Origin: an uncultured virus (IMG/VR IMGVR_UViG_3300042446_001322)
Taxonomy: Duplodnaviria; Heunggongvirae; Uroviricota; Caudoviricetes
Reading direction: 5' to 3' (one strand)
Virus record (IMG/VR): IMGVR_UViG_3300042446_001322
Length of the DNA stretch: 56,305 nucleotides
The position numbers and the translations under genes were made by a program. This document shows positions 4,886 to 42,918 of the stretch, in pieces; position 1 is the first letter of the stretch, and every line of letters starts with the position of its first letter. Below the pieces are notes generated by a model. The model was not told the origin of the DNA. It searched no databases and was given only the letters and a program-made list of their open reading frames with translations.

Positions 4886-7800
4886 ATGGTAAACTGTTCA
4901 TTATCACCAACACAAGTTGAAAATTTATATAAGTTAATATATAAACAAATGCTTAATTCTTTAGAGGATAATTCTTTTAATCAAGAAGCATTTATGACTG
5001 ACCTATTTGAAAAAATAGAACAAAAAGCAGATATTAATACAGCATCTACTTTTTTACAAGTTGTACCTGTTTTAATGAAAGAGGCACTTGAACAAGATGA
5101 ATTAGGAAATGTTAATTTTGATTTAAATATTAATAGGGAATTAATAAATAACTTTAAAAATACAGAAAACGGATTATTTAAAACATTAAAATATTTTAAA
5201 CCTGAAGCTACTTTAGCAGATTTAGAAATCAGTATGGAAATAGAAAAAGGTATAATAAATACTCCTGAATCAGATCAAGGTGATGAATTAACTGATATAC
5301 TTAATGATCCATTTAGATGGCAAGCAGATGATGCTTTAACTTCTACAATGCAAGAACTTTCTACTAGAAAACCTGATGAAAAAGACACTGGAGCTAAAGA
5401 AAAAAAAGATCCTAATAAAGAAAGAATATATAGAGCAATAAGAAAGATTAAAGAAAAAGGTGTAAGAAAAGAAGGTGGACCTGAATTAATTTATCAAGGT
5501 AAAGTATTAAAATTAAAAACAGTAAAATTATTAAGTCTTAATGCTAAAAATTTACTTGATAAAACTACTGTTGCATTTGTAATAAAAAGTAATTCAATAG
5601 TAGATCAAGGTACTAGTCTAGAAGATGTAACTCCTGCTAAAGATATAATTGCATTAGTAGTAACTGATGAAAATGGTGTAGAATTATTTTTTGATGAAAA
5701 TGGAAACATATCTACTAAAGAAGAAGGTGGTCAAATTGTATATCAATTTTTAAGAGATGTAAGAACTGAAAAAGATTCTAATAAATTAAGAGTTACAGAC
5801 ATATATGGTTTAGAAGATAGAATTCTTTCACCTGCAGAATTAATTGAAAAAGATGCTCATAATAGTAAAATGAGTATGGAGTCATATAAAAAATGGTTAA
5901 TTGACCAGGGTACTACATATGAAGAATTACTTGTTGCAGTAGATAATAAACAACAAGAAAGCTTTAAAGAATTACAAAATTTAAGAGATGATGCACGTGC
6001 AGATAAACCTAAATTATTAAACATAACAGATATTAGTGCTGGTATTACTGATGTTTTCTTTTCTGAAACAAGTACAACATTAGATGACTTTCTTACTAGT
6101 AGTAAAAAAACATTTGAAGATTTAGATCTTCAAATTAATCCAGATAAATTTACTGCTCAAGTATATGTAAATGATACTTATTATACAATTGATAGACCTA
6201 ATTTACCTGAAGAATACATAAATCAAATTGCTGCTGTATTAGTAAATCCTAAATTAACTAATGAACAGAAAAATAATTTTTATTTACAGTTTACTAATAA
6301 TAATATTAATAGAGATAAAAGAAAATTACTTGTATTTTATGATTCAGTAACAAAAGAATTAACAGCTAAATATAGAACTAAGTCTTCTGAAAGTGCTCAA
6401 TTATTTGATTTATCAGCTTCTGGTGCTGAAAAAATTATAATTGACAGTTTATTGTATGAAAGTACATATGTTAAAACTAATGGTGAAACAGAAATTTATG
6501 CTACTACCATGGGTTATAATAAAGATTTACTTATAAGTAAAGGTGTCAGTAAATTTTATACATATGACCGTACTACTGATAAACTTATAGCTAAGTCATA
6601 TAAAGATTTTCTTAATGGATTAGACTTAAAAGTTTTAAAACCAGATACTGAAAAAAATGATAAAGATAAAGCAGTAAATAATCCATATTTTCAATTTAGA
6701 ATTGATAAAGATTTTATTGCTGAAACAGAAGAAGTTAAAGAAGCAACAACATCTACTCCTGTAGATAAAATTAAAGAAACTAAAGATAACCTTGTTGCTA
6801 AATTAAAAGTTAATAAAGATTTATCTGGTACTATATACAGTGGTAAAGCACTTACAGATGCTACATTTGAAATGATGATAGATGGTGTACGTGTAGAAGG
6901 TAGATATGAGGATGGTAAACCAATTGCAGGTATAAAAATTGGTGATCCGGTAACATTTATAGTTAATGATGTATCTCCTACTATAACTGATGTGATATCA
7001 ATATATAAAGGAGATAAAAAAATAGGTCAAGTAAGTCAAACTGATTTTACCTTAAAACCAAAAACTCCTAAAGCAACTGTTACTCCACAACAAAAAGCAG
7101 CTGAAAAAGATAAACCACTTACTAATCCAGATAAAGTTGGTCAAGCTGATGATACAACTGGTATAAGTGATGCATTTGATTTAAATAGATCTGCTAAATT
7201 ACCTAATAATGTTACTCAAGAAGAAATTACTGCTGCTCAAGAATGGTGGGATAATTCTCCATTATCTAAACTTATTAAACTTGAGCACATGGCTAACATT
7301 GTTAACTCTGATGTTTATGCAAGATTTATTATAGCAGGTAAAAGATTAGAGGATACTAAAATACAATTAGATACTGCTACTGGTAGTTCTGCTGTAGATT
7401 TATACCATGAAGCTTGGCATGCATTTTCTCAATTATATTTAACTAAGGATCAAAAAACTAAGTTATATGCTGAGACAAGAAAAAGATTAAATAACTATGA
7501 TCTTTCTCCAATTGAAGTAGAAGAAATTATTGCTGAAGACTTTAGAGATTATGCTAAAAATCCTCAAACTATAAAAGATGGGCCAACAAGAAATAGTTTA
7601 TTCAGAAAAATCTGGAATTTCATTAAAGCATTATTTGGTAAACAAAATACTAAAGATGAGTTATTTGAGAAATTATTTTTTGCAAGTAAAAACCCTAAGC
7701 TTTTAAACAAATATACTCCACTTGTTGATAACCATATGTTCAACACTCTTAATAGAGCAAGAGGTATAGTCAACACTGAAACAAAAGAACTTGTTTTAAA

Positions 7801-10800
7801 TTATCAAGATAGTCTTAAGGTATCAAATCAAATTGATTCTGCTTTATCACAGATTATTGATGAAGTGTATAATGATAGACTTAATAAAAATATTAATAAA
7901 GTTAAAGATCTAGCAGGAAATATAGTAACAGTAAATAAAACTGGAACTATTCAGATATTAACTATTGATAAAAATAAAAAAGAAGCTTATGCTAGAATTG
8001 AATTAAGATTTAATAAAAGACTTGATAAATTCAAAACAGAACTAGAAACTACTCCTCAAGAAGATTTTAATAAAAGAAGTTTATTAAATAATAAAATAAG
8101 AATAATAGAAGAAGCACTTGCTAATTGGGATAATGTATTAGAGTTTCATAAAGAACACAGTACATTTGATTTAATTAAACAAAAGTACATTGAAATAAAT
8201 GAAGAAGAAACTGAAATAGATGAAGATAAAACTGGTACAGAAGTTGTTGAAGAATCTGAAGCAGTATCTAAAAGTGAAGTAGGTGAAAAATCATTATTAC
8301 AATTAGCTGAAAAAGAAACTCTTTACATTCTAAAAAGTCTATTTAAAATAGTTGATGGTAAACAAGTAGAAGGGCCATTAGGTTTTCCAGAATTAGTTGA
8401 CTTTAGTAAAATATGGAATACAGTTACTAAAGTAATTGGAGGTGAAAAGAATCCAGTTAAAATGTATCTTAAACTTCAAGAAGCTATACCTTTTTATCCA
8501 GAATTAGCACAACTTGTAAATAATAAATTCCCAGATCCAAGAAATATTAAAACATTACAAGAATTTAATATCAAAGCAGCATTTTGGCAAGATTTTAAAA
8601 AACCTTTAATAAGATATGTTCAATTAACAGTTGATACAGATAAAGAAACAGGTAATTATAAATCTGAAGTAACTGATGCTTCAATTGAATTTAAAAATAT
8701 TATAAATAGTTTTAAGAGTGCATTTAATTCATCTGCAGAAACTAAATATATCAGTAAAAATGAAAATAATAAATCAGCATTAAAACTTGATACACTAATT
8801 AAAGCTTTTCCTACTACTGCATCTATTGCTTTACCTGCACAACAGATTGAATTTGTTAATGCATTAGGAATTGGTTTACAAGATTTAAAAAGTATTAAAG
8901 ATGAATTAGGTTCTAAAGACTATAGTATTTTTTATATATATCAAATTGCAAAAGCAGTTGATACATTAAATAAAGATTCTAAACTTAGTAATAATGAGCA
9001 AAAAGAATTTATTAAAAAATTCATAGATAATCCTATTGATGCATTATATGGTAAAATACCTGCAGGTATATATAAAACTACTACAAGTGAAAAAGCTGTA
9101 ATACAAAACTTAGCAAAATTACAAAGTAAATATGGTAATAATTATGCAAGTTTTAGTGTATTAAATGCAGAGAAAAAACTTGTAAATGAATTTACAGAAG
9201 ATAGTAGTGTTACTATGATAGTAGATGCTATTAACAATGTTAAAAATGGTAGAGATTTATGGATGAATAAAGGATATAACTATATGAGTTACCTTAATCC
9301 ATTGATAAACGGTTTTACTGAGCAATCACAATTACTTAAAAGTATATTTGAGGTTGAAGAAAATACATGGGCAAGAAGAGGAGATGCTAAGTTAGATCTT
9401 GTAATGGTGTCTGGTACTCAAATAGTAAATCTTGATGGTGCTAATACTACTTCTCTTGATGTACATAGTAAATATATTCAAGAATTAAACATGATGTTAA
9501 AATCAGGTTTCCAAGAATTTATGAGACATGCTTCTAAGTCATCATCATTTGGTATGAAGTCTAATAAGTTAAACTTATATGTTGACATTGAAAAATTTAA
9601 ACCAGGAGGAGATGCTAATCAATACGCTGTTGATAATATATTTTTAGGTTATATCCAAGCTGAGTTACTTAGAATACAAAAAATAAGAGGAAATAAAGAA
9701 GAGTATAAAAAATATGTAGGTTATAATAGAGAAATTAAATCTGCAGATGGTAAAACTGTTCTTGGAATGGCTGGTGAGTTCTTTACTGCATTTGATAATA
9801 TATTAACTAAAGATACTAAAGAAGAGATAATTGAAAAAGTAAAAGATGGTAAATTACTTGATTATTTAGAGTCAGACCCTAAATTAAAAGAAGATATAAC
9901 TGAGCAAGTAAGTGCATATTTTGAAAGACAGTCTGCTGATAACAAGAAAGATTTTCAAAAATCTAAATGGATTGACCCAGCATTAACAAATAAATTAAAA
10001 GTTTATGAATTATCAACAGATGATGAAGAAACTACGCTTATTAAAGCACATACAATGAATGCATGGATTCATAATTTTGAGACTGCTAGTTTAATATATG
10101 GTGATATTGTACAGTATAATCATGCTAAACAAGAATTACATAAAAGAAATCCAGGTTCTACTTCAGGTGGTAGAGGATTCATGGATGATCTTTATACTCA
10201 AAACTTTTTAAATAGTGACTTAATTAAAGGTACATCATATGGTGCTAAACTTGCAACTATGGATGAATTTGGTAGTGATTATGCTCCATTTAGTTACAGT
10301 AACACTTATAATACTGCTATTATGCAGGAAGTTAAAAGAAGTTCAGTATATGTTAAAAATATTGAAAAAGGTCTAAGAGAAGATTATAAAAACAGAGGAT
10401 TATCTCAAGCAGAAATTGATAAAAGACTTCTTAAAGAATTAAAACCATATAAAGATATGGAAGAGGGTGATGGTCAAGGTTATATAACTATTGATGCATA
10501 CCGTCTATTAAGACTTGCTGAAAAGAATTGGTCATCTGAACAAGAAGATTTATTCCAAAAAGTAATTAGTGGTAAAGAAGTTAGTACTGAAGATATAACA
10601 CAAATCTTTCCTGTATATAAATTACAACACTTTGGCCATTTAGCTAATACACCATTACCGGTTAATGCAATGCATAAATTTGCATTGATGCCATTAATTC
10701 CATCACTTATTGTTGGTTCTGATTTAGAGTCATTACATCACCAAATGATGAAAGGTAATATACAATATGCTACATTCCAAACTGGTTCTAAAGTAGGTAG

Positions 10801-13800
10801 TGTAACATCTCAATTAAATAAAGATGGTAAAGCAGTAGCAGATCAGATATATGATGATAATGGTGCTCAAAAAACATTAAAATCAGATATTGCTTTTACT
10901 CCAAATACAATATACTTAGCATATCTTAAAAATGTTACAGCTGTTCCAATTAAATTAAAAGGTAAAACAGTATTCTCTACTCAGTTAAGAAAACTTATTA
11001 TTGAAGGTTTATATGAGAATGGTAAATTAGTTAATCAAGAATATGCACCATTTGTTAAAGCTTATGAAGATGCTGTAAATGGTTATACTGAAATACTAAA
11101 AACTGAATTATTAAATGAAATTGGTTATGAATATAAAGATGGTAAATATGTTAGTGGTAATATAACTAAATTCATGGATGTAGTTCAAAGAGAACTTACT
11201 AGAAAAGATTTACCAGAACATTTAATTGACTATATTCAAGTTGGTTCTAATAATGTTTTAACAAAAGATTTATCATTACATATGCTTTCAGGAGACATTG
11301 AAAAAATGATAACATCACTTGTTGAAAAAAGAATCATAAAACAAAAAGTAAAAGGTGAAGCATTAGTACAGGTTGCTAGTTCTTTAACTAATGGATTATG
11401 GGATTCAGGTTTTAAATTTGAAAAAGCTCAAACTGCAGAAATAGAAAAATACTTAGGTACTAATAACTTACCTTTCTATAATCCAGGTGAAAATGGTAAT
11501 ACATCTGCAATGAAAGTTGCTATTGCATTACAAGGTGATTTTAAAAATCTTTTAAAACTGAAAGATCTTGATGGTGTAGAAATAGGTACAAGAGAAAGAT
11601 TAAATGTATTAATTAAAAATGATGAGTGGTTAAATAAAGGCAATAACCGGAAATCTGTTACTTTATCAGCTGTAAGGATCCCTGTACAAGGAATGAACTC
11701 TATGGAGTTTATGGAAGTATATGAATTTTTAGATCCAGCTGCAGGTTCTATTATTATTCCTCCATCAGAAATTGTTGCTAAATCAGGAGCAGATTATGAT
11801 GTTGATAAGCTTACTACATTCATGCCTAATATAGATGAAAATGGTAATTATGTAACATCTAATATATCTGAGGAAACATTAAAAAAATTAATTGCAAATG
11901 CAGAATCTAAAGGTGATAAAGCTGAAGTAGTTAAATTAATTGCATTACAGAAAAAAGCAATTGAAAATAGATTAATTGATTCTATCAGAGGTATATTACA
12001 ACTACCTGATAATTATGCTACATTAGTAAGACCAAATGAAACTTACTTAATGAAAGATATTGCAGATGAGTTAGTAGACTCTTCACCTGAATATGGAAGA
12101 TATAAAACTATTAGTCCAACAAATACATTAGAGGTAGGTTATAATCTAGCTAAACATGATTATAATATGACAGGGAAAGATGTATTAGGTATTATTGCTC
12201 TTGAAAATGCATTACATCCATTGTATACAGCATTAGGTGCTGCTTTACCAAAAACATATTATGGTTCAGTTAAAAATAAAAGGACTAAAAAATATGAAGA
12301 TGATAAAAGTATAATCTATGATATGAGATTATTACTTGATCATAATAAAACTGAAGATGGAAGAATTTCTTTATCAGGTATTAATAGTGTAGATGGCCAA
12401 GATAAAATAGCAGATTTATTTTCACATTTAATGAATGGTTCTGTGGATGTTGAGAAAGATGCATGGATTTTCTTTATTCAAGCTAATAAAGAACTTATAC
12501 CAATGTTGTTGAATTTACTTAAAGCTGGTGTCCCAAAAAGACAAGCAGTTTATTTTATATCTCAACCATTAGTAAAAGAATATGCAAATCAACAAAGACT
12601 ATATGCTAGTACATATGCAAATCTTACTGGTAAAGAAACATTACCTGATGAAAATGCAAAATATAATGCTCTTCAAGCTACATTAAAACAAACTGATATT
12701 AGTCAAGCTATTTTTAAAGCAAATGAAAATAGATTAAATAATACATTAGATAATCTTAATCCTAATACTATTATAAAAGTAAAACCAAAAAATAATAAAG
12801 ATTCATTTGAAATTACTGTTAAAGAATTTAAAAAATTTATTACTGAAGGTGAGATTAAATTAGACTATACTGATGCATTACTTGATATTAAAGGTAATGT
12901 AATATTTAAAAGTATAATTGCAGATCCTAATAATGCGTTTTATCACCCAATGTCTACTCCAAACTATAAAGATGTTGTACTTGCAGCAACTGAAGGTATG
13001 GATAAGTTTACTACAGCTGATTTAAAAGAGACAATGGAAAGTAATGATACTACAAGTCCAAAAGCTATTGCAATGTTCTTACATTACCTAGAATATGAAA
13101 GGCAAATAAAAGATATGGCTGATCTTAAAAGACAGTCAAATCCTGATACTGCTACTTCTAAAACTATACAGGAGATCATGCAAAGAAAAATTGGTTTAGA
13201 TATTTTATCTAGGTCATCTAAAATAGATCAAGATTTAGTAAGAAAATTAAGAGAAGAGTCTATATTAGGATCTTTCTTTGATAATGTTATTACTCAAGAT
13301 TTAGTAGAACCTTTATTTCCATTAACAGATGATAAAAGAGTATCTGATTATTTACTTAATTATATTAATAATAATAACATTCCACTTAAATTTGGTGAAG
13401 GAGCAGATGGCATAACTAATTTTATCACATCATTTAAACAAGCAATGGTAAATTATATTTATCAAAACAGATTAAATGAGATAATAACTACTAAAGAGTC
13501 ATTCCCAGGTGTACCAGAATTATTTAATTCTTTAAATCACCAAGCATATGTGACTAGATTTATGAGTATGATAAGTGAAAATACTCACTTAAAAGAATTG
13601 TATTCAGTACTAGAACAGATTACTGATGTACCGGTAAATATATTTGATTCTAAAACTAAGCAAATTAAAGGTCAGATATCTGTATTAACATTAAACAATA
13701 AACCTGTAGTAAAAGGAGCACTATCTGATAGTTATCATCAAAACTTAATTGATCTTGCTGATGAAAATGTTATTAAAGTAAAAGATCCAGTTAAGAATAA

Positions 13801-14803
13801 AAAAATATCAGACATGTTTAAGATATTACCTCTTATATCTGTTTTACAGAATGGAGTAGGTAACACTAAATATGGTCTTAGTTATGTTCTTCCTGATACT
13901 ACATACTTTGAAATAGTAGAACCAGCATCTAGAGAATTTATTTCTAATAAGATGAATACATCTACTTTTGATAAAATTGCAGCTATGATGATTGCTAATG
14001 ACCCTAATGTAAATAATTACATTGATGGTTCAATTATATTTAAACCTACTACTCAACCATCTACTCAACAACAAGCTCCAGTAGGTAAAGTTTTTGATTA
14101 TAATTATAAAATACCTTATGAAAAACTTAAAGCAGTCATACCGGCTAGTAAATTTAATTCATTATTTATTAAAATTGAGGATTTACTAAATAATTATAGA
14201 ATTAGTAAAGATGTACTTGATACTGTTCTTACTAAAAGCTCAGATAAAATGAAAGGTTTAATATTACTTATAGAAAAGCGATTTAGAAATGAAAATCTTA
14301 TATATGGTACACCTGAATTTGATTTAAATATATGGGAAGAAAATAGAAATTACCTTTCAACTCTACTACATGCTGAACTTAAAAAGATTTATCCAAATTT
14401 ACCTGCACTTGAAAAAATACAAACAGTTGCAAAAAGACAAGCTTCAGTAACTGAAGAAGAACCAGATGGACAAACTGGAGAAGGCACAACTGAAAATCCA
14501 GTACCAGAAGAAAGAAATATAATAGTAAATCAATATACTTTCACAATTAAACCAGATGGTAAAATATATTATGGTAACGGTAAAGAATTAACTGAACAAA
14601 CTATTAAAAATAAAGTGTATATTAGAAAAGAATTACAAGATGGTACATTAAGAGTGTCTACCTTTGATAAAAAAAATTATTATGTGCTTTCAGATAATAG
14701 AATAATTGATTCTGGAAAAACTGTAGGTGATGAATCTGTATTAAATTCTTTAACTAAAGAAAGAATATTAGAAGCAGCTTCACTTTATAAAAAATCTTGT
14801 TAA
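4886..14803 (+). CDS. Virion-packaged two-barrel DNA-dependent RNA polymerase (phi14:2 gp66-like) fused to a zincin-like domain
   Basis: 3305 aa. RIPVQG...SGADYDVDKL gives the catalytic DxDxD (11792-11806). DGQGY motif. HEAWH...EEIIAEDF zincin motif (7406-7420). Architecture typical of crAss-like phages. Confidence 0.88.
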   Translation: MVNCSLSPTQVENLYKLIYKQMLNSLEDNSFNQEAFMTDLFEKIEQKADINTASTFLQVVPVLMKEALEQDELGNVNFDLNINRELINNFKNTENGLFKTLKYFKPEATLADLEISMEIEKGIINTPESDQGDELTDILNDPFRWQADDALTSTMQELSTRKPDEKDTGAKEKKDPNKERIYRAIRKIKEKGVRKEGGPELIYQGKVLKLKTVKLLSLNAKNLLDKTTVAFVIKSNSIVDQGTSLEDVTPAKDIIALVVTDENGVELFFDENGNISTKEEGGQIVYQFLRDVRTEKDSNKLRVTDIYGLEDRILSPAELIEKDAHNSKMSMESYKKWLIDQGTTYEELLVAVDNKQQESFKELQNLRDDARADKPKLLNITDISAGITDVFFSETSTTLDDFLTSSKKTFEDLDLQINPDKFTAQVYVNDTYYTIDRPNLPEEYINQIAAVLVNPKLTNEQKNNFYLQFTNNNINRDKRKLLVFYDSVTKELTAKYRTKSSESAQLFDLSASGAEKIIIDSLLYESTYVKTNGETEIYATTMGYNKDLLISKGVSKFYTYDRTTDKLIAKSYKDFLNGLDLKVLKPDTEKNDKDKAVNNPYFQFRIDKDFIAETEEVKEATTSTPVDKIKETKDNLVAKLKVNKDLSGTIYSGKALTDATFEMMIDGVRVEGRYEDGKPIAGIKIGDPVTFIVNDVSPTITDVISIYKGDKKIGQVSQTDFTLKPKTPKATVTPQQKAAEKDKPLTNPDKVGQADDTTGISDAFDLNRSAKLPNNVTQEEITAAQEWWDNSPLSKLIKLEHMANIVNSDVYARFIIAGKRLEDTKIQLDTATGSSAVDLYHEAWHAFSQLYLTKDQKTKLYAETRKRLNNYDLSPIEVEEIIAEDFRDYAKNPQTIKDGPTRNSLFRKIWNFIKALFGKQNTKDELFEKLFFASKNPKLLNKYTPLVDNHMFNTLNRARGIVNTETKELVLNYQDSLKVSNQIDSALSQIIDEVYNDRLNKNINKVKDLAGNIVTVNKTGTIQILTIDKNKKEAYARIELRFNKRLDKFKTELETTPQEDFNKRSLLNNKIRIIEEALANWDNVLEFHKEHSTFDLIKQKYIEINEEETEIDEDKTGTEVVEESEAVSKSEVGEKSLLQLAEKETLYILKSLFKIVDGKQVEGPLGFPELVDFSKIWNTVTKVIGGEKNPVKMYLKLQEAIPFYPELAQLVNNKFPDPRNIKTLQEFNIKAAFWQDFKKPLIRYVQLTVDTDKETGNYKSEVTDASIEFKNIINSFKSAFNSSAETKYISKNENNKSALKLDTLIKAFPTTASIALPAQQIEFVNALGIGLQDLKSIKDELGSKDYSIFYIYQIAKAVDTLNKDSKLSNNEQKEFIKKFIDNPIDALYGKIPAGIYKTTTSEKAVIQNLAKLQSKYGNNYASFSVLNAEKKLVNEFTEDSSVTMIVDAINNVKNGRDLWMNKGYNYMSYLNPLINGFTEQSQLLKSIFEVEENTWARRGDAKLDLVMVSGTQIVNLDGANTTSLDVHSKYIQELNMMLKSGFQEFMRHASKSSSFGMKSNKLNLYVDIEKFKPGGDANQYAVDNIFLGYIQAELLRIQKIRGNKEEYKKYVGYNREIKSADGKTVLGMAGEFFTAFDNILTKDTKEEIIEKVKDGKLLDYLESDPKLKEDITEQVSAYFERQSADNKKDFQKSKWIDPALTNKLKVYELSTDDEETTLIKAHTMNAWIHNFETASLIYGDIVQYNHAKQELHKRNPGSTSGGRGFMDDLYTQNFLNSDLIKGTSYGAKLATMDEFGSDYAPFSYSNTYNTAIMQEVKRSSVYVKNIEKGLREDYKNRGLSQAEIDKRLLKELKPYKDMEEGDGQGYITIDAYRLLRLAEKNWSSEQEDLFQKVISGKEVSTEDITQIFPVYKLQHFGHLANTPLPVNAMHKFALMPLIPSLIVGSDLESLHHQMMKGNIQYATFQTGSKVGSVTSQLNKDGKAVADQIYDDNGAQKTLKSDIAFTPNTIYLAYLKNVTAVPIKLKGKTVFSTQLRKLIIEGLYENGKLVNQEYAPFVKAYEDAVNGYTEILKTELLNEIGYEYKDGKYVSGNITKFMDVVQRELTRKDLPEHLIDYIQVGSNNVLTKDLSLHMLSGDIEKMITSLVEKRIIKQKVKGEALVQVASSLTNGLWDSGFKFEKAQTAEIEKYLGTNNLPFYNPGENGNTSAMKVAIALQGDFKNLLKLKDLDGVEIGTRERLNVLIKNDEWLNKGNNRKSVTLSAVRIPVQGMNSMEFMEVYEFLDPAAGSIIIPPSEIVAKSGADYDVDKLTTFMPNIDENGNYVTSNISEETLKKLIANAESKGDKAEVVKLIALQKKAIENRLIDSIRGILQLPDNYATLVRPNETYLMKDIADELVDSSPEYGRYKTISPTNTLEVGYNLAKHDYNMTGKDVLGIIALENALHPLYTALGAALPKTYYGSVKNKRTKKYEDDKSIIYDMRLLLDHNKTEDGRISLSGINSVDGQDKIADLFSHLMNGSVDVEKDAWIFFIQANKELIPMLLNLLKAGVPKRQAVYFISQPLVKEYANQQRLYASTYANLTGKETLPDENAKYNALQATLKQTDISQAIFKANENRLNNTLDNLNPNTIIKVKPKNNKDSFEITVKEFKKFITEGEIKLDYTDALLDIKGNVIFKSIIADPNNAFYHPMSTPNYKDVVLAATEGMDKFTTADLKETMESNDTTSPKAIAMFLHYLEYERQIKDMADLKRQSNPDTATSKTIQEIMQRKIGLDILSRSSKIDQDLVRKLREESILGSFFDNVITQDLVEPLFPLTDDKRVSDYLLNYINNNNIPLKFGEGADGITNFITSFKQAMVNYIYQNRLNEIITTKESFPGVPELFNSLNHQAYVTRFMSMISENTHLKELYSVLEQITDVPVNIFDSKTKQIKGQISVLTLNNKPVVKGALSDSYHQNLIDLADENVIKVKDPVKNKKISDMFKILPLISVLQNGVGNTKYGLSYVLPDTTYFEIVEPASREFISNKMNTSTFDKIAAMMIANDPNVNNYIDGSIIFKPTTQPSTQQQAPVGKVFDYNYKIPYEKLKAVIPASKFNSLFIKIEDLLNNYRISKDVLDTVLTKSSDKMKGLILLIEKRFRNENLIYGTPEFDLNIWEENRNYLSTLLHAELKKIYPNLPALEKIQTVAKRQASVTEEEPDGQTGEGTTENPVPEERNIIVNQYTFTIKPDGKIYYGNGKELTEQTIKNKVYIRKELQDGTLRVSTFDKKNYYVLSDNRIIDSGKTVGDESVLNSLTKERILEAASLYKKSC

Positions 14804-34471: not shown

Positions 34472-35200
34472 TTATTTATATATCTCATCCCAGTGAGTAA
34501 CTATTTCTCCTTTGTCATTAGCTTCACTAATAACTATTTCTGCATTTCTTAAATGCTCAGGTCTTGCACCACAAGTTGTTTCTTCATTAGTTTTAAATGA
34601 TAAGAATACTTGATTACCTTTTCTGAACATATAACCAATTGCATCAGCATTTGCACAGATTAGAGACTTGATCTTACCAGTTAAATCTATATTAGCAGAC
34701 ATAACCATTTCACCTTTATCATCTACTTGCTTATCTTTGATATGTCCAGATAGAATAATATGGTCAGCTAAAGTATCTACATAGTTTAAAACATCAAAAA
34801 ATGCTTCTCTCACATATAAATAACCAGCTCCATTTGGTAAAGTAATTACATTATCTCCATCAAAGTTTTTACCCATACTAGTGGCTTTATACTTTTTGAC
34901 AGCTAATGGCATTACCATTTCTTCTAATGCAGTTACAGTATCAATAGTAATAAACTTATAAGGTTTACCAGCTTCAACTACTTGTTTACCAATTGCTAGC
35001 AACTCTTTAAGATTACCTGCTTTAACCTTTAATGCATCTACATAATCAGTCCCATTTTCCAAATCAATAATTAAATTATCTTCTAAACCAGCAAATGCAG
35101 TAGTTTTACCTGTCTTTGGTTTAGAATAAATAATTAATCTTTTTGGATTGACTCTTGTTGCACTCACTTTCTTAGTGGGCAATACTAATCCTTCACTCAT
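34472..35200 (-). CDS. AAA_24 / Sak4-like ATPase
   Basis: YSKPKTGKTT, IIDLENG, ITIDTVT and ADAIGY motifs. Confidence 0.8.
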   Translation of the reverse strand: MSEGLVLPTKKVSATRVNPKRLIIYSKPKTGKTTAFAGLEDNLIIDLENGTDYVDALKVKAGNLKELLAIGKQVVEAGKPYKFITIDTVTALEEMVMPLAVKKYKATSMGKNFDGDNVITLPNGAGYLYVREAFFDVLNYVDTLADHIILSGHIKDKQVDDKGEMVMSANIDLTGKIKSLICANADAIGYMFRKGNQVFLSFKTNEETTCGARPEHLRNAEIVISEANDKGEIVTHWDEIYK

Positions 35201-38282: not shown

Positions 38283-38603
38283 ATGGCTATAAAAGTAAAA
38301 GAATTAAAAGATGATGCTCAAATCAGTGTCCCAGTAAACAAAGCATATTACTTCATGTTGAAGAATAACTTGTTTTATTTATACAATCAAATTCAATTGG
38401 CTGGTCCAGAAGCTTCTGAAAAGTCATTTGAAACTATTAAAGAAGCAGATTACTCAAAGATGTCTCAAGTTGAGCAATCTTTTTATACTGTTACTTTAAT
38501 GATAGCTGAAATTGAGAGACTTGCTTTAGAGCAAAATCTTTTTGATGAGAAAGAGGTACTTGAACCTACAGATGAAGGTTATGTTGAGCCTACGCTAGAT
38601 TAA
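38283..38603 (+). CDS. Hypothetical protein, sole + strand gene in the - strand block
   Basis: 106 aa with natural composition. Fills a gap that has no competing - strand ORF. Confidence 0.7.
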   Translation: MAIKVKELKDDAQISVPVNKAYYFMLKNNLFYLYNQIQLAGPEASEKSFETIKEADYSKMSQVEQSFYTVTLMIAEIERLALEQNLFDEKEVLEPTDEGYVEPTLD

Positions 38604-39982: not shown

Positions 39983-40176
39983 TTAACGGTTTTTTCTCTG
40001 TTCTATATAATCAATAATAAATCCTGTAGCAACTATTAAATTCATGCCACATGATGCAACAACTTCTATAATATCTTCATAAACATTTACCATAAGATGT
40101 AAATGCCCAACTGTCCAGAATGGAATAGCCAAATTTTGACTAATCCACACTGTAAGATATTTTAAAAAATGCTTCA
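39983..40176 (-). CDS. Small membrane protein (likely start MKHFLKYL)
   Basis: Hydrophobic ORF. The track start at 40246 overlaps the DUF1566 gene, so the downstream ATG is preferred. Confidence 0.55.
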
Positions 40177-40181
40177 TTTTT

Positions 40182-40532
40182 TTAAATTGACCTAACCGCA
40201 CGCACATAGTTTGTGAAGTTCTTATTGTAGTAGTAGGCATTCCCATAGTTGAAGAGGAAGGACCACGCGAGGCCGTAGTTGGTCCCCGTACTACTCCAAT
40301 AGCTGTCAGTAGTAATTACTTTATGATTATACATAATAAAGCATTCTTCAATAGTTGGTAATCTCCAATCATCTCCTAATTCTTTAACTGCTTTTACAGC
40401 ATCTTCCCAATTCATTTTACCTAATTCTTCAGGATGTACTTCAAATTTATAATGTTGTTCTACAATAATTGATTCTAGTTCTTTATCTTTTTCTTTAGGA
40501 ACATATACTATTCCATCTATTATTACTTCCAT
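40182..40532 (-). CDS. DUF1566 (Lcl-C, C-type lectin fold) protein, putative DGR target
   Basis: MNWEDA...DDWRLPTIEE...YWSST...AW...VRAVR. Confidence 0.85.
   Translation of the reverse strand: MEVIIDGIVYVPKEKDKELESIIVEQHYKFEVHPEELGKMNWEDAVKAVKELGDDWRLPTIEECFIMYNHKVITTDSYWSSTGTNYGLAWSFLFNYGNAYYYNKNFTNYVRAVRSI
40185..40301 (-). repeat. DGR variable-region-like segment
   Basis: 17 C-ending codons (ACC AAC TAC GGC CTC..TCC TTC CTC TTC AAC..GCC TAC TAC TAC..) in a genome that otherwise favours A/T at third positions. Ends GTGCGTGCGGTTAGG. Confidence 0.7.
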
Positions 40533-42425: not shown

Positions 42426-42689
42426 TTAAACTAATGCAAAATCTTCTTCAAGAACCTCTTCTGCTTTCTTAGTCTTGCTTGTACTTACTACAGCAAATCT
42501 ATTAGCATTATAATATTCATAAGGAAAACATCCATTAAGGTTTATTTCTTCTAACTCATATCCATATGTGTTAGCTTGAATACCCATATTTATTACTCTG
42601 ACCACTGTGTAGAATTGATCTTCTACTAGCCATTGACTTAAAGGAATCTTATTGGGTTTATTTTTTGAATTAATGCATTTGACTTTCAC
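42426..42689 (-). CDS. Hypothetical protein
   Basis: 87 aa with a GTG start overlapping clpS. Confidence 0.6.
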   Translation of the reverse strand: MKVKCINSKNKPNKIPLSQWLVEDQFYTVVRVINMGIQANTYGYELEEINLNGCFPYEYYNANRFAVVSTSKTKKAEEVLEEDFALV

Positions 42690-42918
42690 CTATCTCTACA
42701 TTTAATTCTAGATCAGATAATTGGTTATATATATTAAAGATGTCATCAAAGCCACCGGATTTAATATCATATGAACCTATATTATCTACTATTACAGCAC
42801 ACTGTTCTGCTTGATCAGGTGTATGTTTACATACTTTAATGAGACAAGCTATGATATATAAAAAATCATGGTGATCATCATTGTATAATGTTATTTTATG
42901 TGTCTTTTCCAAAACCAT
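42670..42918 (-). CDS. clpS: ATP-dependent Clp protease adaptor ClpS
   Basis: HKITLYNDDHHDFLYII..LIKVC.H...QAEQCA.IV...G. Confidence 0.85.
   Translation of the reverse strand: MVLEKTHKITLYNDDHHDFLYIIACLIKVCKHTPDQAEQCAVIVDNIGSYDIKSGGFDDIFNIYNQLSDLELNVEIGESQMH

Follow-up and report, generated by a model that had tools for sequence, protein, structure and literature searches.

What rewrites a hypervariable phage gene when the DNA around it carries neither a reverse transcriptase (RT) nor a template repeat (TR)? This question is raised by a minus-strand ORF at positions 40182-40532 of a 56,305-nt stretch of DNA from an uncultured virus, here called the window. We address it by characterizing the gene and its variable region (VR), by locating the template that the VR matches, and by weighing the routes by which a diversity-generating retroelement (DGR) could act on it.

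A small Lcl_C gene in a crAss-like phage

The ORF encodes 116 amino acids, and a Pfam search placed the Lcl_C domain (DUF1566, PF07603) over residues 38-114 with an E value of 1.4e-11, above the curated cut-off, in agreement with an earlier note, made from the letters alone, that had described a tiny DUF1566 gene. An AlphaFold2 model of the protein (pLDDT 86) had the C-terminal domain of Legionella Lcl as its closest PDB match (8q4e, TM 0.66), and an ESM Atlas search returned Lcl_C clusters only. We therefore annotate 40182-40532 as a stand-alone gene of C-type lectin fold and a DGR target. The same note had pointed to an abrupt switch to C-ending codons between invariant anchors, and this too was borne out: C is the closing base in 17 of the final 39 codons versus 3 of the first 77, and the three anchors are found where it had put them, at 40301-40287, 40268-40263 and 40205-40191. 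The switch begins one to two codons ahead of the first anchor (codons 76-77). GC content is 28% over the first 77 codons and 47% over the last 39, the window as a whole being at 28.6%. The best 36-codon segment of the gene holds 19 C-ending codons; the maximum elsewhere, among window ORFs of at least 80 aa, is 9.

The part before the switch (40306-40532, minus strand) is constant and has phage-like, AT-rich codons. It consists of a short beta-strand leader and the CLec core, which was unvarying across 50 homologs, with W42, L52, W56-T60 and E63 invariant. The ratio pN/pS upstream of the VR was about 0.3-0.5 in the more diverged pairs; it came close to 1 or exceeded it in the closest ones, where the counts are small. 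The protein was said to have no signal peptide, and indeed no signal-like stretch was found in it, its best 15-residue hydropathy being 0.43 versus 2.45 in the bacterial target described below. Together with the template match, these features confirm that the gene is a true DGR target with its VR in the CLec domain.

The window appears to be part of a crAss-like phage of Bacteroidota, judging from a giant virion RNA polymerase gene (3305 aa; 4886-14803, plus strand) identified by tblastn. The C-terminal part of its product matches phi14:2 g066 (E 1e-16), and the 75 records matched by it are, by name, crAss-like, Flavobacterium, Bacteroides, Cellulophaga or uncultured phages. Genes for a polymerase, a primase, DnaB, a uracil-DNA glycosylase and a Sak4-like single-strand annealing protein (34472-35200, minus strand; phrog_124, E 5e-30) are on the opposite strand. 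The 116-aa gene sits amid small genes on the strand that encodes replication, over 20 kb away from the genes for the virion. The leftward block to which these small genes belong lies upstream of replication, and this position suggests that it is an early gene. A Sak4 homolog (73%) is found in G004, a complete, syntenic relative of 128,825 bases that has 37 of 51 window ORFs in common; no match to the window's Sak4 was found in the VR-bearing genomes G217, G226 and G239.

The best DNA matches of the window were lake and freshwater metagenomes, 19 of the 24 listed runs carrying at least half of the window's words, and RNA runs contained 5-7% of them. The longest contig encoding the 116-aa protein has 118,305 bases; the window and the 11 kb added by record G001 cover about 67 of the roughly 118 kb of this phage, and about 51 kb lie beyond. 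No cultured phage was matched by the 116-aa protein, and the phage DNA polymerase gave matches of only about 35%, of no use for host assignment. A repeat search in the window yielded chance AT-rich repeats only, and promoter and terminator scans stayed near chance (12 versus 7.8 +/- 3.0). The window also encodes a ClpS-like adaptor at 42670-42918 (PF02617, E 1.8e-11) and, at 38283-38603, a lone plus-strand gene of 106 aa within the minus-strand block, found in the same place in G004, L040 and L065.

Template repeats that match the variable region

A TR core was inferred from the phage VRs alone and scanned over one genome per species for 185,579 prokaryote species. Three stretches matched, all in Bacteroidota MAG contigs (JBDKEM010000057.1, CANNJE010000181.1 and JAXLTL010000003.1). 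Each belongs to a cassette of a secreted Lcl_C target, avd, TR and RT beside T9SS-type genes. The cassettes L025 and L026 are intact, with an RVT_1 protein of 419-422 aa bearing YVDD, bAvd, and an Lcl_C target whose VR departs from the TR at A only. The third (L027:7667-8100) is decayed, its RT being cut to 82 aa and its TR frame holding a stop codon, and lies near an integrase and an IS91-like transposase.

The VR of the window (40194-40305, minus strand; codons 77-113) matches this bacterial TR except at adenines. Relative to the 104-nt TR core of L026, it differs at 17 of 43 A sites and at 1 of 61 non-A sites (Fisher p 4e-7), the match reaches 4 nt past the core on each side, and blastn aligned the two at 83% over 115 nt. 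Thus a template differing essentially at adenines next to an RT, for which the earlier note had suggested a search, does exist, in Bacteroidota chromosomes. Three relatives found by protein search gave A/non-A differences of 20/0, 21/1 and 15/0 to the same TR; three more distant ones gave 18/10, 18/7 and 20/16 and presumably follow other TRs. The single non-adenine mismatch of the window to the known TRs, at codon 85 (40278-40280, minus strand), recurs in L039, a phage locus; a TR allele slightly different from the known ones may therefore have been the actual donor. Among 20 kb of the window, the VR was the sole strong match to the three TR-bearing genomes.

The residues encoded by the VRs also track the template. 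At its one GAC codon, 26 of the 30 closest homologs carry D, G, A or V, versus 1-6 of 30 at the 13 AAC columns. The AAG codon for K104 was unaltered in all 16 phage VRs and all 8 bacterial VRs compared, reflecting either selection or a context bias of the RT. A pattern search of metagenomes, accepting TRs and VRs alike, returned 19 stretches, six loci being called phage from gene context by eye; non-A conservation in the VRs found in this manner is by construction. Three of the 19 were TRs, all behind avd in a bacterial cassette. A narrow VR pattern search returned the identical copy only. Of 201 genomes from the G008 family, only the carrier, G008, had the TR at high identity. In addition, L057 and L061, which are different bacterial target genes, carry an identical VR allele, which suggests exchange of VRs between targets.

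Phage and bacterial targets differ at the 3′ boundary. VR and TR have a GC-rich boundary in common (40194-40205, minus strand), and homology in the window ends 7 nt short of where the TR match of the bacterial targets ends, so that its IMH is only partial. Past the core, the match runs on for 4 nt in the window and for 11 nt in six of the nine bacterial targets, and the other three depart from the reference TR at the very next base; phage VRs cease to match 0-6 nt past the core. The two bacterial targets that were folded have a GC hairpin downstream, whereas phage targets have neither the full IMH nor a GC hairpin. Just downstream of the window's VR, DNA folding identified an AT-rich inverted repeat (40159-40187, minus strand) as a candidate homing stem-loop, which is present in L003 and weak or absent in L039, L042 and L043.

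Independent alleles and searches for a phage-borne retroelement

Of 125 candidates, 109 proved to be homologs of the 116-aa protein. The closest 90 or so are mostly 114-135 aa long, with a conserved N-terminus and a hypervariable C-terminus. Among 87 parsed proteins (4 of 91 were left unparsed), 18 are at least 88% identical to the window protein before the VR and only 49-68% identical within it. All 19 VRs from proteins with at least 88% N-terminal identity were distinct, an outcome that clustering at 90% favours. In-frame insertions within the VR, found in 8 of the 30 closest homologs, may reflect slippage of the RT on runs of AAC. The VR has been lost from a few relatives (L010, P0090), and family members L107, L108 and L145 have aged VRs with only 2-3 C-ending codons in about 40, which makes them good controls for a VR that is no longer renewed.

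The comparison of the window with L002 illustrates how the VR changes. Their flanks consist mostly of blocks 98-99.5% identical, with one at 93%, and differ at 8 positions in 231 nt upstream and 14 in 600 nt downstream; within the VR, 26 of 104 sites differ, 25 of them at a template A. Across 28 pairs from eight phage VRs, the mutated bases in common numbered 3-8, with 5.0 expected from site frequencies if the VRs are independent; this comparison left out L001 (VR equal to the window's), L007 (equal to L006's), L009 (insertion) and L010 (VR deleted). Two loci that were also found by protein alignment show the contrast between the two parts of the gene: third positions differ from the window at 23 of 74 upstream in L039 and at 8 of 72 in L043, whereas the VR of either agrees with the window at all 33 non-A third positions. 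The outcome that the earlier note had set against its own reading, homologs differing mainly at synonymous third positions, is thus not what we observed; they differ at codon positions 1-2 opposite template A.

Within populations the VR looked stable. In contigs from four lake runs, out of the 24 listed runs, it was unchanged where covered, one run having a gap in the VR, and contigs drop rare variants; the read-level hypervariability that had been predicted was accordingly not seen in these contigs, which suggests that rewriting is episodic rather than constant. The window's allele is likewise unchanged in G001 and L001, and protein P0001 occurs on 14 contigs, which we counted against ongoing rewriting. 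The three TR-bearing genomes contained no spacer-like match (window 18000-56305) or prophage match to the phage. A 23-nt exact match in G008 was rejected as a spacer, as it lies in an AT-rich run outside any array.

Searches for a retroelement in the phage itself support the statement of the earlier note that the window has no RT or template repeat: apart from the VR itself, even the closest fit to the template departs from it at 26 non-A sites, and DGR RT and Avd queries found nothing by tblastn. Neither RT nor TR was found in the 67 of about 118 kb covered for this phage, nor in the complete genome of G004, which has the gene. G004 contained no template for its own VR, nor did G217 and G226, whose genomes have terminal repeats (best 22-28 non-A mismatches). 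The complete RT-free genomes had no VR of exactly the window's TR, their VRs being 8-14 non-A mismatches from the best template found, and looking for RTs in 401 + 401 Bacteroidota genomes yielded no template closer to the VRs of the other phage families, 12-14 being the lowest count. The matching TR and RT did not turn up among 2.9 million viral contigs: the TR+VR pattern returned 10 stretches, none a TR, a looser TR core returned nothing, and none of 10 RT-relative candidates was confirmed.

Of 49 virus records with genes of this kind, a single one had a DGR RT; the set was drawn from 50 loci of the VR-pattern and protein-alignment searches, with L051 left out. Eight of these records are at least 90% complete; six have a fresh VR without RT, one a decayed VR and one an RT. 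Some virus records have two or three small VR-bearing genes (L111, L113 and L115, all in one 45.8-kb record; L123, L136, L140, L141, L144 and L146), and no RT was found in the 45.8-kb fragment. The bacterial TR of the window also matches VRs in larger Lcl_C genes of 184-511 aa (L041, L042, L044, L053, L055, L062 and L068), which belong to the structural regions of other phages; the DNA retrieved for them contained no RT.

Routes of rewriting and relation to known systems

The VR-TR match, the repeated independent rewriting, the cellular location of all matching TRs found and the lack of RT and TR in complete relatives are the established part of this account. To explain them, we consider it probable that the gene is occasionally rewritten in trans by cDNA of a host DGR during infection. 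This fits the remote or trans target that the earlier note had offered as one option, the gene being a DGR target without a nearby cassette and the TR standing beside avd and RT elsewhere. The phage could instead recombine repeatedly with already diversified chromosomal VR alleles of the host target, no cDNA acting on phage DNA, but this we regard as unlikely. Such capture of DNA would give the same A-only pattern and the same independent alleles, yet no phage VR equals a bacterial VR (16 versus 9 compared) and none has the bacterial 3′ flank. Phage tail-type genes do have long protein homology to the bacterial target (55% over 174 aa for L041), and the allele common to L057 and L061 indicates that VRs do move by recombination. 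Although the substitution spectra of phage and bacterial VRs are not significantly different (p 0.11, the duplicate-VR L061 left out), phage VRs carry fewer changes (mean 17.4 versus 20.8 of 43, p 0.02). The window is also closer to the TR (83%) than to the bacterial VRs (71-78%), which both models permit. On present data, cDNA and genomic VR DNA are indistinguishable as donors.

We find it quite unlikely that the cassette is phage-borne, whether in the 51 kb beyond or on a co-infecting phage or prophage, so that the gene would be an ordinary remote target. A precedent exists in G248 (87 kb), which carries its own complete DGR in the order tail target-avd-TR-RT (L151:1-2100). Its TR differs from the C-terminal target beside the cassette at 20 A and 0 non-A sites, and from a remote 131-aa gene of the window's family, about 35 kb away (L129:2486-2881), at 12 A and 0 non-A sites over 83 nt. 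The family therefore accepts remote rewriting and a phage could be the donor, and distal second VRs are known in phages from the available text of PMC5758913 and PMC12629997. However, G004 and the 2.9 million viral contigs gave the negative results described above, the viral TRs that did turn up (three of a broader pattern and that of G248) are all more than 16 non-A mismatches from every phage VR parsed in that comparison, and a cassette in cis would be expected to produce variation within populations, of which the contigs showed none. The constancy of the allele across samples would suit an allele captured once and frozen, or left behind by a cis DGR that has been lost, and drifting since, as would the RT-less DGR remnants of epsilon crAss-like phages (PMC11054128, in the part available). 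The earlier note had left such a frozen variant open, but it is highly improbable: L002 is nearly identical in its flanks and has a wholly different VR, and the VRs behave as independent draws, so they are not one frozen capture. Moreover, non-A sites of the VR are undrifted while synonymous sites upstream have drifted, and truly old VRs look otherwise, as in L107, L108 and L145.

Under rewriting in trans by a host DGR, then, RT, Avd and template would reside in another genome, on a mobile chromosomal cassette of freshwater Bacteroidota. The phage would infect a cassette-bearing cell, its presumed host, in which adenine-mutagenised TR cDNA, the likely donor, would pair with the homologous VR of about 110 nt on replicating phage DNA. 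The cDNA would replace the VR whole, probably via single-strand annealing, because the phage keeps only part of the IMH; the 3′ match of 0-6 nt seems to fit homology-driven annealing rather than normal IMH homing. The Sak4-like protein is a candidate helper in integration. Rewriting would be occasional because cassette-carrying hosts are rare, and new alleles would then persist clonally. Weighing against this route are the 51 kb of the phage beyond the DNA covered, the lack of spacer-like matches in the three carriers, the unchanged VR in the lake contigs, the complete RT-free genomes without a VR of exactly this TR, the missing full IMH and GC hairpin of phage targets, and the three VR-bearing genomes with no match to the Sak4. 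The gene would yield a small CLec protein that stays in the cytoplasm and whose randomised face most likely binds a host protein or ligand during infection. Its use as a binder for takeover or counter-defence is a tentative suggestion, if a serious one, and there is a lesser chance that the gene is a tolerated passenger. We also incline, by a little, to a broader view in which freshwater Bacteroidota phages without a retroelement keep template-matching landing sites that a chromosomal DGR of the host rewrites during infection, one TR serving several unrelated phage gene families (here, small early genes and tail-type genes) and one family drawing on several TRs, as a common viral strategy.

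In the available portions of the literature, the closest likeness is to category 'd' DGRs (DUF1566, CLec2) such as that of Legionella LdtA, with an Lcl_C/DUF1566 target, a C-terminal VR, A-to-N changes opposite AAC codons and an avd-TR-RT cassette; about half of category 'd' targets are short single-domain proteins (PMC5758913). Here, by contrast, the target is in a virus and the cassette in a bacterium, and the target has no signal peptide and a partial IMH. Remote or trans targets of Treponema, cyanobacteria and Thiohalocapsa PB-PSB1 are likewise far from RT and TR and recognised at non-adenine sites (PMC5758913, PMC10907252, PMC7517822), but as there described they share a genome with the cassette; such targets have been argued to go with cellular rather than phage-associated DGRs (PMC5758913). 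In phages with a distal second VR (PMC12629997, as far as available; G248), a non-tail gene far from the cassette is diversified as here, but those phages encode their own RT and TR, whereas six near-complete records here have a fresh VR and no RT. The locus also departs from a complete phage-borne DGR of the BPP-1 type, with no RT, TR or avd in the 67 kb covered or in complete G004 and a target that is not a tail or receptor-binding protein. The incomplete DGRs of epsilon crAss-like phages resemble it in having a VR with a broken or missing RT, but in the text available to us (PMC11054128) they are read as inactive beside a receptor-binding gene, whereas the VR here is repeatedly renewed and matches a bacterial TR.

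The nearest experimental parallel is DGRec, in which lambda-vir was diversified on infecting cells expressing a DGR and the RecT annealase (10.1101/2025.03.24.644984, in part). There, too, an annealing protein helps cDNA from a DGR encoded by the cell to overwrite homologous DNA of a lytic phage as it infects; that system was engineered in E. coli, whereas here we would have a natural counterpart with an annealase probably supplied by the phage. A reconstituted DGR is reported, in the portion available, to favour targets exposed on the lagging strand (PMC12875486). The accessible parts of the literature cover targets remote from the cassette but in its own genome, phages that bear both a DGR and a distal VR, and relics devoid of an RT (PMC8144416, PMC8867640, PMC5758913, PMC10907252; the same ground in PMC12629997, PMC11054128, PMC12386605, PMC12875486, 10.1101/2024.11.15.621889 and 10.1101/2025.03.24.644984). 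In this literature, largely outside subscription papers, we found no natural phage gene written by a cellular DGR, although supplements may list some. According to the available text of PMC8144416, DGR surveys start from the RT and seek adjacent targets, missing remote ones; RT-free phage targets are invisible to them because they begin at the RT. If phages do use host DGRs, a host's diversifier would also arm its viruses, hypermutated viral genes would be undercounted, and the VR would serve as a sequence tag linking a phage to hosts with a given TR. Phage targets retaining the GC boundary alone would furthermore be a natural experiment on the requirements of cDNA integration, which is still open in the DGR papers as far as these were available.

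Two further members of the family have unusual architectures. The G004 homolog (L022:14295-15107) is fused in frame behind a Fib_succ_major domain, in a protein of 270 aa. In L039/L077 (2501-2851), an N-terminus of the L005/L006 type is joined to a VR from the window's TR; one gene lineage can therefore switch templates.
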